From: an uncultured Bacteroidales bacterium
GTDB taxonomy: Bacteria; Bacteroidota; Bacteroidia; Bacteroidales; WCHB1-69
Direction: 5' to 3'
Assembly (NCBI GenBank): GCA_905235135.1
Contig: CAJOKR010000004.1
Location: forward strand, 25,027 to 89,026
Length of the DNA: 64,000 bases
In this document: piece after piece, positions 10,488-51,134 of the stretch
Numbering within the stretch: the first letter of the stretch is position 1
How the letters are laid out: each line of letters starts with the position of its first letter
Position numbers and translations under genes: made by a program
The notes under the pieces: generated by a model
Told to the model about the DNA's origin: nothing
Database searches by the model: none
The model's input: only the letters and a program-made list of their open reading frames with translations

Positions 10488-10520
10488 AATTATGAATTAT
10501 GAATGCTGAATTATGAATAA
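10488..10520. repeat. 7-bp-period degenerate array (AATTATG units)
   Basis: AATTATG AATTATG AATGCTG AATTATG AATAA lies directly after the ClC stop. The same template, with a coordinated T-to-A change, occurs inside vsr (48254-48287). Confidence 0.7.
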
Positions 10521-11155: not shown

Positions 11156-11183
11156 GTAGAGACGCAATGCATTGCGTCTCTAC
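11156..11183 (+). terminator. perfect palindromic hairpin of the GAGACGC family after rfbC
   Basis: GTAGAGACGCAATG/CATTGCGTCTCTAC is a 28-nt perfect palindrome 9 nt after the rfbC stop. Confidence 0.6.
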
Positions 11184-11199
11184 TGTATCGGACCTGCAT

Positions 11200-11247
11200 C
11201 GGAGTTACATCGGAGTTACACCGGACTTACACCGGACTTACACCGGA
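11200..11247. repeat. 11-bp tandem repeat, about 4.3 units
   Basis: cggagttacat cggagttacac cggacttacac cggacttacac cgga. Confidence 0.75.
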
Positions 11248-11305
11248 GGAAGAGCCTTTTTTTAACCCATTAATAACAGGCAATCATCCGTATTCGTAAT
11301 TTCCG

Positions 11306-16491: not shown

Positions 16492-16515
16492 AGAGACGCA
16501 AAATTTTGCGTCTCT
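16492..16515 (-). terminator. GAGACGC-family hairpin after the 16515-17465 gene
   Basis: AGAGACGCAAAA/TTTTGCGTCTCT is a perfect palindrome abutting the stop. A second hairpin, GGTCGG-cattccta-CCGACC, lies at 16469-16488. Confidence 0.55.
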
Positions 16516-27274: not shown

Positions 27275-28690
27275 TTATTGCAGAGACGCGAAATTTTGCG
27301 TCTCCACGTTCTTCGTTTCCTCGTTGCTTGTTATGGAAAACACCTGACGCTGCGTAAACAGCAGCACTGCGGCGAGAATCGCGCCTAAAACGTCGGAAAT
27401 GGTGAGTGAGAGCCAGATGCCGTGAAGGCCATCCCAGCCGGCATCCACAAAGAGCAACGGGATGATGAGGCTCATGGGGACCAAAAAGAGGACCTGCCGC
27501 GAGAGGCTGGTGACAATGGCCACCCAAGGTTTGTCGATAGATTGGAAGAAGTTGGAGTTCACGATGGTGAAACCGATGAGCGGGAACATCACCATGCTAT
27601 AGCGCAATGCTGTTTTGCCGATTTCGATAAGCTGCTGGTCAGTGGTGAAAAGCCGCATCATCGTACGTGGGAAAATGCAGGAAACCACACTGCCGAACAG
27701 CCCGATGGCCACACAAACCCACATCGTAAGGCCATAGACGTGCTTCAGCCGGTCGCCGTGACCTGCACCGTAGTTGTAACCCGCAATCGGCTGCATACCC
27801 TGACAAACACCGATAATCATGAGTACCAAGAAGTTACCGTAGGTATTGCAGATTCCGTAGGCACCCACCGCAAGGTCGCCGCCATAGCGCAGCAGCTGCC
27901 GGTTGAGGATGGCCACCACACCCGCCGCAGCGAGGTTCATCAAGAACGGACTCATACCGATGAGCGTGATATTACGGAAGATATAGCCGCGAAGCTTCCA
28001 GCAGTGCGAACGGAAGCGAATGAACGAATCGGGTTGCACAAAATGGAGTACCGAAACCAGCGCCATGCAGAAGATGGAGATGGTGGAAGCGATAGCCGCG
28101 CCCTTGATGCCGAGACCTAATGCAAAAATGAAAATCGGGTCGAGGATGATGTTCAGAACTGCACCCCCCGCCATAATCAGCATAGACTTGGTGGGATAAC
28201 CCGAAGCACGAATCAGACCCGTAAGGTTGAAGGTGACGGTAATCAGGAACATGCCCGGCAGGATATAGACCATATACTCGCGGGCGTAGGCCACCGTCTC
28301 TGCCGTCGCACCAAACATCATCAAGATGCGGTCCATGAAGAGGTAGCAGAAAAAGACCACCAATCCGCTCAGGATAAAGGTGAATATCAAGCTGTTACCG
28401 AGGATATTCTCCGCCCATTCCTTATCTTTGCGACCTAACACGATGGACATCCGGGCGGAAGAACCCACCCCGATGAGGGATCCGAAAGCGTGGATGATGT
28501 TCATCAGCGGGAAAGTGATGGCGAGGCCTGCAATGGCCAGCGCACCCACCCCGCGGCCGATGAAAATGCGGTCCACGATGTTATAGATGGAGGCGATAAT
28601 CTGGCTGATCACCGCCGGCAGCGCATACTTCCACAGCAGGCTGCCAATGTCGCGGGTCTCCAGTTCCTTTGTTCTGTCAAGCGTTTCCAA
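27275..28690 (-). CDS. MATE-family efflux transporter
   Basis: The 471-aa product has about 12 TM helices and the N-terminus ...LLWKYALPAVISQIIASIYNIVDRIFIGRGVG. The last 10 codons run through the GAGACGC hairpin. Confidence 0.85.
   Translation of the reverse strand: METLDRTKELETRDIGSLLWKYALPAVISQIIASIYNIVDRIFIGRGVGALAIAGLAITFPLMNIIHAFGSLIGVGSSARMSIVLGRKDKEWAENILGNSLIFTFILSGLVVFFCYLFMDRILMMFGATAETVAYAREYMVYILPGMFLITVTFNLTGLIRASGYPTKSMLIMAGGAVLNIILDPIFIFALGLGIKGAAIASTISIFCMALVSVLHFVQPDSFIRFRSHCWKLRGYIFRNITLIGMSPFLMNLAAAGVVAILNRQLLRYGGDLAVGAYGICNTYGNFLVLMIIGVCQGMQPIAGYNYGAGHGDRLKHVYGLTMWVCVAIGLFGSVVSCIFPRTMMRLFTTDQQLIEIGKTALRYSMVMFPLIGFTIVNSNFFQSIDKPWVAIVTSLSRQVLFLVPMSLIIPLLFVDAGWDGLHGIWLSLTISDVLGAILAAVLLFTQRQVFSITSNEETKNVETQNFASLQ
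27283..27304 (-). terminator. GAGACGC-family hairpin overlapping the MATE 3' end
   Basis: GAGACGCGAAA/TTTTGCGTCTC has an 11-bp stem with one G.U pair. Confidence 0.45.
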
Positions 28691-35314: not shown

Positions 35315-35420
35315 TTACCGCACCGCAGGCGGCTGTATTCCGCTGAAAATCCCCAACTCATTCGCAGGTACTTGAGCCGTATTTGAACAGTAGTAGGCAA
35401 GTATATGGCAAGTCCAAAGT

Positions 35421-35470
35421 ACTTGCCTGGACTTGCGAAGTACTTGCCATCTACTTGCCAAATACTTGCC
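35421..35470. repeat. iteron-like array: five ACTTGCC words at 10-11-bp spacing, with two inverted GGCAAGT words just upstream
   Basis: acttgcctgg acttgcgaag tacttgccat ctacttgcca aatacttgcc. The inverted words ggcaagt lie at about 35397 and 35407. Confidence 0.65.
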
Positions 35471-35487
35471 AAAGGCCTGTGATGTGA

Positions 35488-36297
35488 TTCGCCGATGACG
35501 ACGGGCAGGAGATAGAGGTATGGTATGCTCGGGAATTGCAGCAGGTATTAGGGTACTCCCGATGGGAGAATTTCGCGACCGCCATCGGACGGGCTATGCA
35601 ATCGTGTAAAACATTGGGTATCAATATTGATGACCATTTTCGTGAGGTCACGAAAATGGTCATGTTGGGCAGTGGATCGCAACGCGAGGTACAGGACTTT
35701 ATGCTCACCCGCTATGCCTGCTACCTCATTGCCCAAAATGGTGATCCGAAGAAAGATGAGATCGCCTTTGCCCAAAGTTACTTCGCCGTGCAGACCCGCA
35801 AAATCGAGCTTATAGAAGAAAGGCTTCATCAGCTTTTACGAATTGAAAGCAGAGACCGGTTGCGCGCATCTGAAAAGCAGTTGAGCAAGAACATTTACCA
35901 GCGCGGGGTTGACGAAAGAGGGTTCGGACGCATCCGTTCAAAAGGAGACCAGGCACTTTTTGGCGGTCTCTCTACCGAACAGATGAAACAGCGTTTAGGT
36001 ATCAAAAGCGGTGCCTTGGCCGATTTTCTCCCCACACTTACCATTGCAGCCAAAAACCTTGCGACGGAGATGACCAACCACAATGTTGAACAGAAAGATT
36101 TGCGTGGAGAAGAAGGCATTACCGCCGAACACGTGCAAAACAACACGAGTGTAAGGGGAATGCTGAGACAGCGAGGCATAAAGCCGGAAGAACTCCCTCC
36201 CGCGGAGGACATTAAGAAAGTGGAACGCAAGGTGGCGAAAGATGAAAAGCAGCTACAGGAGAAGTCGCAAAGGCTGCCGAAAGAGAAGGACTCTTAG
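35488..36297 (+). CDS. dinD: DNA-damage-inducible protein D (DinD)-like protein with a degenerate or frameshifted 5' end
   Basis: ...DDDGQEIEVWYARELQQVLGYSRWENFATAIGRAMQSC...MLTRYACYLIAQNGDPKK..IAFAQSYFAVQTR. An upstream fragment (...CDVIRR*) lies in another frame. Removing C35493 gives ...DVIRDDDGQEIEVW. Confidence 0.7.
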   Translation, partial: FADDDGQEIEVWYARELQQVLGYSRWENFATAIGRAMQSCKTLGINIDDHFREVTKMVMLGSGSQREVQDFMLTRYACYLIAQNGDPKKDEIAFAQSYFAVQTRKIELIEERLHQLLRIESRDRLRASEKQLSKNIYQRGVDERGFGRIRSKGDQALFGGLSTEQMKQRLGIKSGALADFLPTLTIAAKNLATEMTNHNVEQKDLRGEEGITAEHVQNNTSVRGMLRQRGIKPEELPPAEDIKKVERKVAKDEKQLQEKSQRLPKEKDS

Positions 36298-37035: not shown

Positions 37036-37314
37036 ATGAGCACTATACAAGAGATACACGCTTTAGAGCAAAGCATTTACGATATAGTTCAAGACTACAT
37101 CGATGGAGATTACAATGAAGACGACGTCCTCGCGATTGACCGTCGCCATGGCGAAATCACTCTCACGGCCGATACCCGAGAAACCATCAAAACCAGAAAG
37201 GGCACCGAAGTTTACCCACTTAAAGAATTGGTTTGCGCAGGAGAACACTTTTCTCTTGAACCAGATGGAGACAAAATTTCGGAGGTGGCGAACAGTTGGC
37301 TTTTTTTGGAATAA
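37036..37314 (+). CDS. small, strongly acidic hypothetical protein
   Basis: The 92-aa product has about 21 D/E against about 8 K/R. It lies immediately upstream of the methyltransferase operon. Confidence 0.45.
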   Translation: MSTIQEIHALEQSIYDIVQDYIDGDYNEDDVLAIDRRHGEITLTADTRETIKTRKGTEVYPLKELVCAGEHFSLEPDGDKISEVANSWLFLE

Positions 37315-37341
37315 AGATTTGGGACCAAAAGAAAAAAAGAT

Positions 37342-37349
37342 TATTTTTG
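37342..37349 (+). promoter_or_regulatory. -7 box TATTTTTG upstream of the methyltransferase operon
   Basis: gatTATTTTTGcag lies 24 nt upstream of ATG 37373. Confidence 0.45.
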
Positions 37350-48033: not shown

Positions 48034-48609
48034 ATGACCGACACGATGACTCCCCAGCAACGCCACTACTGCATGTCGCGGATACGCAGTAAGGATACTA
48101 CGCCCGAGAGGCGCGTACGACAATGGTTGTGGCAACACGGCTACCGCTACCGGCTTTGCGTGAAGGGGGTTCCAGGGAAACCTGACATCGTAATGCGGAA
48201 GTATCGGACGGCGATTTTCGTGAACGGATGTTTTTGGCACGGACACCTTATTCAATTAAGAATTAAGAATGCAGAATTAAGAATGAATGGGGAAGGGCCG
48301 GAAACACACAGTTCAAAATGTTGCAAGATTCCGAATACCAATCGCGAATTTTGGGTGGCGAAGATACGGCGGAATCAGGAGCGGGACCAGCAAAATTACA
48401 AGGTGTTGGAGGAGAATGGGTGGCAGGTGATTGTGCTGTGGGAGTGTCAACTGAAGCCCAAAAAACTGGAGCAGACGATGTTACAAGTGGAAATCCAACT
48501 CCACGACTTCTACCTCAAAACCTTCAACTACCGGTCGAAATCGTACATTCATATCGAAGAGGAAAACCTGCCGATGGTGGCAGAGGATCCAGAAGAGTAT
48601 GGACAATAA
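48034..48609 (+). CDS. vsr: very-short-patch-repair endonuclease (Vsr) with a 23-codon in-frame insertion
   Basis: ...RIRSKDTTPERRVRQWLWQHGYRYRL....PGKPDIV....TAIFVNGCFWHGH[LIQLRIKNAELRMNGEGPETHSS]KCCKIPNTNREFWVAKIRRNQERD...GWQVIVLWECQL. Confidence 0.8.
   Translation: MTDTMTPQQRHYCMSRIRSKDTTPERRVRQWLWQHGYRYRLCVKGVPGKPDIVMRKYRTAIFVNGCFWHGHLIQLRIKNAELRMNGEGPETHSSKCCKIPNTNREFWVAKIRRNQERDQQNYKVLEENGWQVIVLWECQLKPKKLEQTMLQVEIQLHDFYLKTFNYRSKSYIHIEEENLPMVAEDPEEYGQ
48254..48287. repeat. 7-bp-period array (AATTAAG units) inside the vsr coding sequence
   Basis: AATTAAG AATTAAG AATGCAG AATTAAG AATGA has the same template as 10488-10520, with T-to-A in every unit. Confidence 0.7.
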
Positions 48610-48620
48610 ACAGAACGATT

Positions 48621-49019
48621 ATGAAACATATTACCGTAGCAGCAGCTATTATCCACGATGAGGAGAACCGCATCTTCGCCACCCAGCGGGGATCCGGCGA
48701 CTGGAAGGACTGGTGGGAGTTCCCGGGCGGGAAAATCGAACCCGGGGAGACACCCGAAGAGGCTGTCCGACGCGAGATTTGGGAAGAATTGGAGACCCAC
48801 ATCATCGTCGGGGAACTGTTGCATACCATCGAGTGGGACTATCCCAAATTCCACCTTACCATGCACTGCTTCCTCTGCACCATCGAGAGCGGCTCGCTGA
48901 CCCTCCTCGAACACGAGGCCGCCCGCTGGCTCGCCCCCGACGAACTGGACAGCGTGCAGTGGCTACCGGCGGATTTGGAGGTGATTGAAATGCTGAAGGA
49001 GAAGACTAAGTTAGTTTAA
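48621..49019 (+). CDS. mutT: NUDIX hydrolase, MutT-like (8-oxo-dGTP diphosphatase family)
   Basis: ...WEFPGGKIEPGETPEEAVRREIWEELE... is the Nudix box. Confidence 0.75.
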   Translation: MKHITVAAAIIHDEENRIFATQRGSGDWKDWWEFPGGKIEPGETPEEAVRREIWEELETHIIVGELLHTIEWDYPKFHLTMHCFLCTIESGSLTLLEHEAARWLAPDELDSVQWLPADLEVIEMLKEKTKLV

Positions 49020-49100
49020 GGTTTAGGGTTAAAGGTTTTACTTTGAACCTTGAACTTTGAACTCTTTGAAACTTGAAACCTGAAACTTGGAACCATTGGA
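49012..49100. repeat. short-period degenerate array (GGTTTA / TTGAAC words)
   Basis: tagtttaaggtttagggttaaaggttttactttgaaccttgaactttgaactctttgaaacttgaaacctgaaacttggaacc. Confidence 0.6.
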
Positions 49101-50363: not shown

Positions 50364-51134
50364 ATGACCACCTATTACAATTTTGAGCATTCAACAATAA
50401 CAAAAGTGGTTGGAAGTGCCCCGGGGGGACAACTGGAACTCCTTCAGCCTCTGAATTTTAACAGCATGCAACAATTGTTCAACAAGTTGCCAAAACAATC
50501 GGAATTCAGGCTGAAAGGGAATTCTCGCCTTACAGATTTACTCTATTGCCTTAATATTAGCACTATCAATAACTTTATTGTCAGTTCCAAAATGTATTCC
50601 ATATTGAAGAAATTCAATCTTCAAGAACACCAATGGGAAAGTTGTACCATTAGAAAAAAGGACAAAACCTGGGACTATCATCTGCTCAGATTTGCGCAAC
50701 CGCGTGATAATAAAAGGCGTCCACAGCTCTGTTGTCCAGAAATGGTGGATTGGAAAAATTCGGTTTTTTTTGAGGATTCCTATGCTCGTTTTGGGGGAAT
50801 AAAAGGGAATGAGTCCATCTTAAAAATTAACAGCTATGATGACTATCTGAAAGTACAAGCCGAATATAATCGCAAATTCGATGAACATGAAAATATAGAC
50901 TTGGCAATTGGTGTCTTAAAATTTGCTTTCAACGAGGAATATATGGAGAAAAACAACCCCGATATGTGTTGGTTGTACCCATTGCATTCAAATCCGTTGA
51001 TTTCGGAAAGACTAAAAACGGCATTAGAGGAAAACGATATCACAAGTGTGGAAACGATGGAAATAAACTCCTATCTCTGTCGCAACGATGCAGAAGTACT
51101 TGGCAATACCTTTAAGGAACTTGGCGTGCGGTAA
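50364..51134 (+). CDS. hypothetical protein
   Basis: A 256-aa ORF with no recognised motif. Confidence 0.45.
   Translation: MTTYYNFEHSTITKVVGSAPGGQLELLQPLNFNSMQQLFNKLPKQSEFRLKGNSRLTDLLYCLNISTINNFIVSSKMYSILKKFNLQEHQWESCTIRKKDKTWDYHLLRFAQPRDNKRRPQLCCPEMVDWKNSVFFEDSYARFGGIKGNESILKINSYDDYLKVQAEYNRKFDEHENIDLAIGVLKFAFNEEYMEKNNPDMCWLYPLHSNPLISERLKTALEENDITSVETMEINSYLCRNDAEVLGNTFKELGVR

Follow-up and report, generated by a model that had tools for sequence, protein, structure and literature searches.

An in-frame insert of intergenic-type repeats in the zinc knuckle of a Bacteroidales Vsr endonuclease

Vsr endonucleases, the enzymes of very-short-patch repair, nick 5' of the T of a T:G mismatch within the site of a 5-methylcytosine (5mC) methyltransferase, and the crystal structures of the Escherichia coli enzyme reportedly obtained by Tsutakawa et al. 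in 1999 are the source of the residue roles and of the list of zinc ligands used here. Repeats of a non-coding type can also lie within genes: the Rickettsia palindromic elements (RPEs), said to have been found by Ogata et al. in 2000 inserted in frame in protein-coding genes, represent one defined element of ~100-150 bp distributed over many genes, where each insertion is separate and is thought to form a tolerated surface segment; PMC1779305 also deals with the subject. Here we analyse a stretch of 64,000 nucleotides from an uncultured Bacteroidales bacterium (the window, 64 kb), whose vsr gene carries an in-frame insert with a heptanucleotide repeat array between the codons of its zinc ligands.

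Heptanucleotide repeats are represented in cyanobacteria by the short tandemly repeated repetitive (STRR) sequences. According to PMC4679880, they are the most abundant class of long simple sequence repeats (SSRs) in prokaryotes (after Mrazek et al. 2007), are mostly intergenic and often lie just upstream of start codons, with polymerase slippage as the proposed origin; intragenic repeats normally have a unit length divisible by three (again after Mrazek et al. 2007), and TAACTGA repeats are described from Beggiatoaceae, Cyanobacteria and Bacteroidetes. An excerpt of PMC2704214 describes a 57-bp in-frame variable-number tandem repeat (VNTR) in leuA, a housekeeping enzyme gene of Mycobacterium tuberculosis. 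In-frame repeat insertions, in-frame VNTRs and heptanucleotide repeats are each already known.

The insert in vsr and its intergenic twin

The product of the window's vsr gene (coordinates in Table 1) matches the Pfam family Vsr (PF03852) at E 3e-30, with 104 bits against a curated cutoff of 27, and is aligned by phmmer with 1cw0/1vsr at E 7e-24, in agreement with an earlier note, made from the letters alone, that had named the gene a Vsr endonuclease. The alignment with E. coli Vsr (1cw0) falls into two blocks, query residues 10-72 and 95-144, with residues 72/73-94 unmatched. The numbering of the two proteins is the same up to residue 72, with Cys66, Phe67, Trp68, His69 and His71 in place; within this CFWHGH segment we take Cys66 and His71 to be zinc ligands, Phe67 and Trp68 to be DNA-intercalating and His69 to be catalytic. 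The catalytic and intercalating residues Asp51, His69, Phe67, Trp68 and Trp86 align with 1cw0 and are invariant in our alignments A1-A3. As to the zinc ligands, Cys66, His71 and Cys138 (Cys117 in E. coli) are conserved, and E. coli Cys73 has no aligned partner. The fourth ligand is presumably supplied by Cys96-Cys97, a pair that is invariant in the insert-bearing proteins of alignment A1 and nearly invariant in the insert-bearing loci described below.

The extra residues, ~22 of them without an E. coli counterpart (LIQLRIKNAELRMNGEGPETHSS, encoded by the 69 nt at 48247-48315), are placed between CFWHGH and KCCKIPNTNREFW, that is, between zinc ligand His71 and the next cysteines. In alignments A1 and A2, which include the insert-free relatives L013, L019, L073 and L101, 24 codons at 48247-48318 replace two to three codons of the insert-free alleles (H-EG-CCKI or H-EGC-KQFVL). 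The earlier note's description of an in-frame insertion relative to canonical Vsr, lying between zinc-liganding residues, is borne out by these comparisons, and alignment with insert-free and insert-bearing relatives confirms the insertion at one codon position.

The insert has a GC content of 0.36, and the array within it one of 0.19, compared with 0.51 for the remaining vsr gene. The pattern AATTAWG AATTAWG AATGCWG AATTAWG AAT has exactly two matches in the window, one inside vsr with W = A (48254-48284) and one with W = T at 10488-10518, against a chance expectation of 0.00 matches in dinucleotide shuffles, and Tandem Repeats Finder reports both as period-7 arrays. The twin at 10488 lies between the stop codon of a ClC gene and rfbC and has stop codons in all three frames. 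It differs from the vsr array at four positions, all of them T/A exchanges at one fixed position of each unit, with the other adenines unchanged. The insert is therefore made of a 7-bp repeat type that is otherwise intergenic, as had been proposed from this near-twin. The exact window protein is encoded on 10 contigs, and the four contigs that were read belong to four assemblies, among them NCBI GCA_017429365.1; because the identical protein occurs on independent contigs and assemblies, mis-assembly is excluded and the insertion survives the concern that it might vanish on re-assembly. Reading of the insert sequence revealed neither a target-site duplication nor terminal inverted repeats.

An AlphaFold model computed with 25 close homologues reached a predicted local distance difference test score (pLDDT) of 46 and was unusable; the model used here was computed with 57 more diverse sequences and has a mean pLDDT of 72, with block means of 83-90 in the core. 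Superposition on 1vsr (template modelling score, TM, 0.77; root-mean-square deviation 2.1 Å) and on 1cw0_A (TM 0.71) points to a Vsr fold. Residues 71-90 have a pLDDT of 37-52 and no secondary structure, so that the insert is predicted to be a low-confidence loop on the Vsr core.

At its other end, the subfamily has a C-terminal tail, (L/M)PM(A/V)AE(D/E)xxEYG (48565-48606 in the window, residues ~178-191), that is absent from E. coli Vsr. This tail is modelled with low confidence and resembles a short partner-binding peptide.

Spread, filling and turnover of the site

We fetched 160 loci from species-representative genomes and metagenomes and scored the 169 vsr copies of these loci and the window by locating CFWHxH and the downstream P...xxFW motif in any frame. 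The distance from His71 to the proline ranges from 18 to 156 nt and is a multiple of three and free of stop codons in 169/169 copies. It is at least 45 nt in 136 copies, which we regard as insert-bearing (27-138 extra nt), and the other 33 show the canonical short form (H-EGC-KQFVL-P or H-EG-CCKI-P). An apparent frameshifted allele, P0193, was set aside as probably an assembly chimera: the contig, 545 bp long, departs from vsr within the array. All of the 120 closest database proteins (71-93% identity, 177-209 aa) have extra residues at the site, and in the close clade the Vsr flanks are >90% conserved and the inserts of different types are unalignable. Inserts at the same codon occur in most relatives, from 93% identity down to Prevotella-type proteins (~48%), and their ends are conserved: the inserts open with x-V and close with (E/D)(N/S)S-x-C-C-K-I. 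The minimal insert-bearing form has nine extra residues (e.g. LVDSSTMESS), and longer inserts resemble this form expanded in its middle. In a set with one representative per 50%-identity cluster, more than 10 residues occupy the site in 22 of the 130 Vsr relatives that could be evaluated; the longest has 120 residues from His71 to the proline (~110 extra) with internal tandem repeats of its own. The hosts are rumen and gut Bacteroidales, represented by metagenome-assembled genomes labelled Prevotella, Paludibacteraceae, Bacteroidaceae or unclassified Bacteroidales.

The shared codon position and conserved ends across relatives indicate that the insertion site itself is old and widespread, and that only its filling is young and turns over. 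A recent insertion private to this strain is excluded by the subfamily-wide site and by the presence of the same allele in L081, whose vsr protein is 92% identical. The picture, implied by the earlier note, of a single repeat element that had landed in this one gene thus gave way, since most relatives carry an insert with conserved ends at the same codon. Orthologues do have a corresponding segment; in most, however, it is heptamer-periodic or palindromic and not non-repetitive, and the comparison generalises the core point of that note rather than refuting it.

The fillings fall into several kinds. Most inserts have a self-identity of 0.5-0.73 at lag 7, against ~0.25 at lag 3, and they also match themselves at lags 14 and 21. 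Another group consists of perfect palindromes with arms of 12-15 bp, such as GTAGAGACGCAAAATTTTGCGTCTCTAC, read as V-E-T-Q-N-F-A-S-L; this palindrome family is present three times in the window's own spacers (11156, 16492 and 27283), and vsr of L096 encodes the 11156 type as VETQCIASL. A third group carries a proline-rich ...CTCACCCCTAACCCCTCTCCAAAGGNGAGGGG... repeat that is read as TPNPSPKGEG. Hairpin-type alleles have a strong RNA fold (z -4.3). When insert k-mers were searched in the remainder of the loci, 14-mers gave 160 non-coding and 70 coding matches (vsr-flank controls 13 and 107) and 16-mers gave 85 and 16 (controls 0 and 17), with non-coding DNA making up only ~10% of the sequence searched. 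Spacer arrays matched in other genomes share the insert units GTTCAAG, GTTGAGA, GTGAAAA and ATTCATA. The mean GC of inserts (0.415) agrees with that of non-coding DNA of the same loci (0.416), with 0.523 in the vsr core, and the window's spacers have autocorrelation peaks at lags 7, 14 and 21.

Perfect palindromes of the GTAGAGACG family were also seen in L002, L008, L083, L084, L093 and L099, besides 11156 and 16492 in the window. Their centres vary (AAAATTTT, GATTAATC, AATGCATT, GGGCGCGCCC), each remaining a perfect palindrome through the centre, and each change in one arm has its counterpart in the other, which is what intrastrand template correction would produce.

A block of three heptamers spans 21 nt, or seven codons, so that the repeat unit cycles through all three codon phases. 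In the window array the third unit lies in codon phase 0 and reads AAT-GCA-G where AAT-TAA-G would be a stop; the earlier note's observation that stops are avoided holds precisely here, with the GC variant of the third unit at the would-be stop. Idealised to its consensus, the window array has one in-frame stop, and the real array has none. Equivalent phase-0 changes are found elsewhere: AATTAGG to AATGAGG in L001, AATTGAA to AATGGAA in L003, AATTGAT to AATGGAG in L015 and AGTTAGC to AGTGAGC in L177. When 60 distinct vsr arrays were idealised to their consensus units, in-frame stops appeared in 43, compared with none in the real arrays, and in the examples inspected the deviations coincide with the would-be stops. 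Length changes follow the same register: one allele family occurs with 2, 5 and 8 heptamers (L176, L177 and L175), corresponding to 10, 17 and 24 residues, and starting from AGTTAGT AGTTAAG in L176 each step up adds AGTTAGT AGTTAGC AGTGAGC (21 nt).

Inserts are also exchanged between backgrounds. Between the window and L161-163 the last 290 nt of vsr are identical and the first 115 nt nearly so, and the inserts are unrelated; ~13% divergence is confined to roughly nt 120-310 around the insert, and L092 and L093 differ in a like pattern. On a tree of core sequences the insert types are scattered, with the insert-free L101 beside L008 and L093, and the insert-free L073 beside L149. Chimeric inserts occur in P0014 and P0027. 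The ClC-rfbC spacer that holds the twin array is unchanged in five related strains, and in L171, with rfbC 99.3% identical, it keeps only AATGCTGAATTATGAAT of the array, followed by a palindrome; this spacer is swapped in the same manner as the vsr insert. Recent recombination was not supported as an explanation for insert types shared by diverged backgrounds, the silent divergence of the adjacent flanks (0.54) being close to that of the distal core (0.59). The array listing, with 3-10 kb of flank per locus, gave no sign that vsr arrays best match the flank arrays of their own genome, a comparison made by inspection on few arrays.

Weighing the explanations

The reading that we favour, with a probability of about 0.6, is that the insert is a tolerated, translated, spacer-like loop that arose from one ancient permissive insertion in the Vsr zinc knuckle and whose interior has been refilled by spacer repeats. 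On this view the 69 nt are the current content of an old, variably filled insertion site in one Bacteroidales branch of Vsr; the gene is intact, and the insert is translated into a predicted floppy loop between His71 and Cys96/97. The loop DNA behaves like an intergenic spacer caught within a gene, with heptamer arrays, perfect palindromes and spacer-like composition, and it changes in two ways, either by gain or loss of three-heptamer blocks (21 nt, seven codons) or by wholesale replacement. Alleles, including insert-free ones, would move among strains by homologous recombination in tracts of ~100-200 nt. Selection on the filling seems limited to the reading frame and to stop codons, with the phase-0 unit point-changed against TAA, TAG or TGA. 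We infer that slipped-strand mispairing causes the length changes, that palindromes and new array types enter by insertion or by short-homology copying from spacers, that the loop is disordered and leaves T:G nicking intact, and that the insert peptide probably has no sequence-specific role.

Several results sit uneasily with such a passive loop. For 148 pairs with a common insert type on well-diverged backgrounds, the amino-acid identity of the insert is 0.64 and that of the core 0.79, and yet silent codon differences amount to 0.23 in the insert versus 0.54 in the core, and differences at 4-fold sites to 0.36 versus 0.59. The flanks adjoining the insert show no dip in silent divergence (0.54). 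A freely drifting loop should not exceed silent sites in conservation, and the result is thus at odds with one; the pairs were picked for alignable inserts, which biases the comparison, although the histogram of distances is nonetheless bimodal. Mutual correction between repeat units or palindrome arms could slow divergence without any function, and a role at the nucleic-acid level is an alternative account. Across ~870 kb, moreover, vsr holds ~48 of 93 strong period-7 arrays and 9 of 42 perfect hairpins (9 of the 14 hairpins that are internal to open reading frames, ORFs), with at most ~7 arrays and 5 hairpins, several in doubtful ORFs, in all other ORFs together. Tolerance alone leaves vsr as the near-sole coding host unaccounted for, unless one ancient event is responsible. 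Finally, the twin at 10488 has the same TA-to-GC variant in its third unit despite having no reading frame, and a second non-coding array with the X-X-Y-X-X layout lies at L054:5570; copying between vsr and spacers would explain the coding-type variant in the twin. A stronger version of this, in which the insert is an active site of exchange between the gene and the pool of spacer repeats, with short-homology templated repair or a repeat-specific enzyme copying arrays and palindromes into and out of it, would account for the conserved silent sites, the coding-type patch in the twin and the near-sole coding host together, and we consider it an outside possibility.

Two other accounts give the insert a function. 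It might be a deliberately variable arm of the enzyme at the zinc knuckle, beside Phe67/Trp68, that touches DNA or a partner (MutL, for example) or evades an inhibitor, with diversifying or balancing selection keeping alleles and favouring their exchange. Such an arm would fit a site that has been retained through a wide radiation without ever leaving the frame, the conserved ends (x-V ... E/D-N/S-S-x-CC) with the minimal 9-aa form, identical alleles on diverged backgrounds and unrelated alleles on nearly identical ones, where divergence is highest at the insert, and the position of the insert, by alignment, next to residues that touch DNA in 1cw0. We nevertheless judge it unlikely: insert types share no amino-acid pattern, lengths run from 9 to ~110 aa, change is codon-blind (ratio of amino-acid to silent change ~1.6 in the insert versus 0.4 in the core) and without a period-3 signal, the modelled segment has low pLDDT and no secondary structure, and close relatives (L101, L073) have insert-free canonical alleles. 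Alternatively, the insert might matter as nucleic acid, as a cis element akin to intergenic arrays and hairpins (for instance one bound by a repeat-recognising factor, a pause or attenuation site keeping Vsr low, or a signal for the NUDIX gene downstream) that only needs to remain readable. Vsr overproduction is mutagenic in E. coli, which makes a brake on expression plausible. Nucleotide conservation independent of codon position, with silent sites more conserved than in the core, fits a cis element, and so do the conservation of the insert families and their dispersal among spacers of distant genomes, vsr as almost the sole coding host and the strong fold of hairpin-type alleles. The unrelated fillings are interchangeable, however (arrays of varied units, GC-rich palindromes, proline-rich repeats), and can be absent altogether; the RNA fold of the window insert (z -0.4) is no better than that of shuffles, as is true of the 10488 array, an Rfam search of 46-51 kb of the window gave no match, and no common motif was found. 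We rate this account slightly below the variable arm.

That the heptamer tract is a contingency locus, in which 7-nt slippage switches Vsr off and on as a reversible local mutator state, would suit a unit that is not a multiple of three inside the ORF of a mutation-avoidance gene, the variation of array length among strains, and the heptanucleotide tracts that mediate phase variation in Haemophilus influenzae (PMC2651432). We regard it as improbable, since none of the 169 copies is out of frame, the sole apparent frameshift being the probable chimera P0193, and the observed length variants differ by 21 nt, not 7; only two adjacent identical units are present here, every third being interrupted, whereas known switches have 13-38 perfect units (PMC2651432). 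The recent arrival, in this strain only, of a mobile intergenic repeat, like a miniature inverted-repeat transposable element (MITE) or a repetitive extragenic palindromic (REP) sequence, or else a mis-assembly, could have been suspected from the 31-nt twin elsewhere in the window and from an AT-rich composition unlike the remaining gene. We consider it refuted by the 10 contigs and four assemblies, by the allele shared with L081, and by the same codon position throughout the subfamily with neither target-site duplication nor terminal inverted repeats noticed. An intein or intron was rejected (69 nt is too short, the motifs are absent and all alleles are in frame), as was translational bypass of the gene-60 type, which would not require 169/169 stop-free, in-frame fillings. 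A pair of variable and template repeats (VR/TR) of a diversity-generating retroelement was likewise rejected: the differences between 10488 and 48254 are uniform T/A exchanges in each unit, not random ones at template adenines. The two copies lie 38 kb apart.

Neighbouring features and comparison with known systems

Table 1. Positions of vsr, its insert and associated repeats and genes in the window
Feature	Position	Strand	Basis
Intergenic twin array AATTATG AATTATG AATGCTG AATTATG AAT (W = T)	10488..10518	+	pattern search; Tandem Repeats Finder
Intergenic perfect palindrome GTAGAGACGCAATGCATTGCGTCTCTAC	11156..11183		family also fills the vsr insert in other lineages
Intergenic palindrome AGAGACGCAAAATTTTGCGTCTCT	16492..16515		vsr inserts of L093, L002 and L011 consist of this sequence
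Intergenic hairpin GAGACGCGAAATTTTGCGTCTC, third member of the 11156/16492 family	27283..27304		palindrome family membership
vsr, 191 aa, T:G mismatch endonuclease (very-short-patch repair), Bacteroidales subfamily with C-terminal tail	48034..48609	+	Pfam, phmmer, AlphaFold
CFWHGH codons: Cys66, Phe67/Trp68, His69, His71	48229..48246	+	residue-for-residue alignment with 1cw0; invariant in alignments A1-A3
Insert, 24 codons (LIQLRIKNAELRMNGEGPETHSSK), predicted low-confidence loop	48247..48318	+	alignment gap versus E. coli Vsr; insert-free relatives; AlphaFold; GC
Heptanucleotide array AATTAAG AATTAAG AATGCAG AATTAAG AATGAAT	48254..48290	+	Tandem Repeats Finder (period 7, 4.4 copies); pattern search
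Cys96-Cys97 ('CC' of CCKIP), candidate stand-in for zinc ligand Cys73	48319..48324	+	inferred from conservation and position
NUDIX (MutT-like) gene, 11 nt 3' of vsr	48621..49019	+	Pfam NUDIX, E 4e-23
Two inverted heptamer arrays (GTTTAAG... / ...TTGAACC), long hairpin 3' of the vsr-NUDIX pair	49014..49094	+	Tandem Repeats Finder; RNA fold

The claim that the genome encodes 5mC methyltransferases is supported by the motifs PCQxFS...ENV in two ORFs of the window, 37103-38440 and 43443-45170. Both genes lie 3-10 kb upstream of vsr, the second ending ~2.9 kb before it, and they are likely sources of the T:G mismatches that the window Vsr would repair. Downstream, the pairing of vsr with the NUDIX gene is kept in related strains (synteny in L161-L167). 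The two arrays at 49014-49094 show heptamer arrays in their usual intergenic setting, and because they pair into a hairpin (RNA fold -26.1 kcal/mol, z -2.95) such arrays can double as terminator-like stems. Two genes 3' of vsr, the product of ORF 50364-51131 weakly resembles the immunity protein family Imm11, at E 5.5e-05 and barely above the cutoff.

Upstream of vsr, positions 1-10000 of L161 and L162, from a near-identical strain, hold DUF1016/YhcG, ICMT-like and defence-like genes (Z1, AIPR, DUF4420, HNH), and the window has an aldose epimerase at the corresponding position. This difference in upstream gene content among strains suggests that a variable gene island adjoins vsr.

Repeats of other kinds were seen around these features. 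In the Prevotella-type loci L054 (3518-3552) and L159 (2512-2560) an AATTAAA/AATTCAA array directly follows the vsr stop codon, so that heptamer arrays flank vsr as well as filling its insert; both run into AATGAAG, possibly a start codon or mini-ORF. Spacer arrays of the window with periods of 11/22 nt lie at 11183-11248 (CGGAGTTACAC), directly after the 11156 palindrome, and at 35417-35473 (ACTTGCC-type), and the spacers thus hold several periods besides 7. The ORF 35536-36297 contains a perfect 16-bp inverted repeat, ATGACCATTTTCGTGA gg TCACGAAAATGGTCAT, at 35630-35663; it is the longest perfect inverted repeat of the window besides the spacer palindromes and could be an operator-like intragenic site.

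The locus presents a conserved repair enzyme with what is virtually an intergenic spacer in its metal-binding motif, across many lineages of gut and rumen Bacteroidales. It shows in nature how repeats with a non-triplet unit can persist within an ORF, and it can serve as an internal reporter of the mutational processes at work in the spacers of these genomes; it also marks a very permissive insertion point in the Vsr fold that could serve protein engineering. Should the nucleotide-level conservation prove real, this would suggest that the abundant arrays and palindromes of Bacteroidales spacers have a function or a copying mechanism that has gone unrecognised; if active exchange takes place, it could give heritable tuning or diversification of a mutation-avoidance enzyme. 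Full-text literature searches found no description of the vsr insert, and what we have not seen described is the combination of one conserved metal-motif site that hosts many families of spacer repeats over the long term with non-triplet arrays kept open by patches and three-unit steps.

With E. coli Vsr (V.EcoKDcm; 1VSR, 1CW0) the window protein shares PF03852, the fold (TM 0.71-0.77), the conserved Asp51, His69, Cys66, His71 and Cys117 (Cys138 here) and nearby 5mC methyltransferase genes. It differs in the ~22 extra residues between His71 and the next cysteine, in a Cys-Cys pair that lies two residues closer to Pro79 and presumably replaces Cys73, and in the conserved C-terminal tail LPMxAEDPEEYG; the gene does not overlap a dcm gene and is instead paired with a NUDIX gene.

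Like RPEs, the fillings are non-coding-type repeats translated in frame within ORFs and present in multiple copies, also in non-coding DNA. Here, however, a single site in a single gene family holds many unrelated short repeats, mostly direct 7-nt arrays, whose fillings turn over; almost no other ORF in ~870 kb has such repeats, and only some alleles are palindromes, the window insert (z -0.4) not being one. The tandem 7-nt units, and window spacers with autocorrelation at lags 7, 14 and 21, recall the heptanucleotide SSRs of prokaryotes, from which the vsr arrays differ in persisting within an ORF, with patched units and three-unit length steps. With the leuA VNTR, as far as the excerpt of PMC2704214 describes it, vsr has in common the copy-number polymorphism of an in-frame repeat in a housekeeping enzyme gene, but the leuA unit is a multiple of three and belongs to a single family, and that excerpt mentions neither intergenic exchange nor stop-avoidance patching. 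The SSR contingency loci of H. influenzae (PMC2651432) resemble vsr in having a non-triplet unit within an ORF and length variation among strains; unlike them, the vsr tract is short and interrupted, has no out-of-frame alleles among the 169 copies and changes length in frame-preserving steps.

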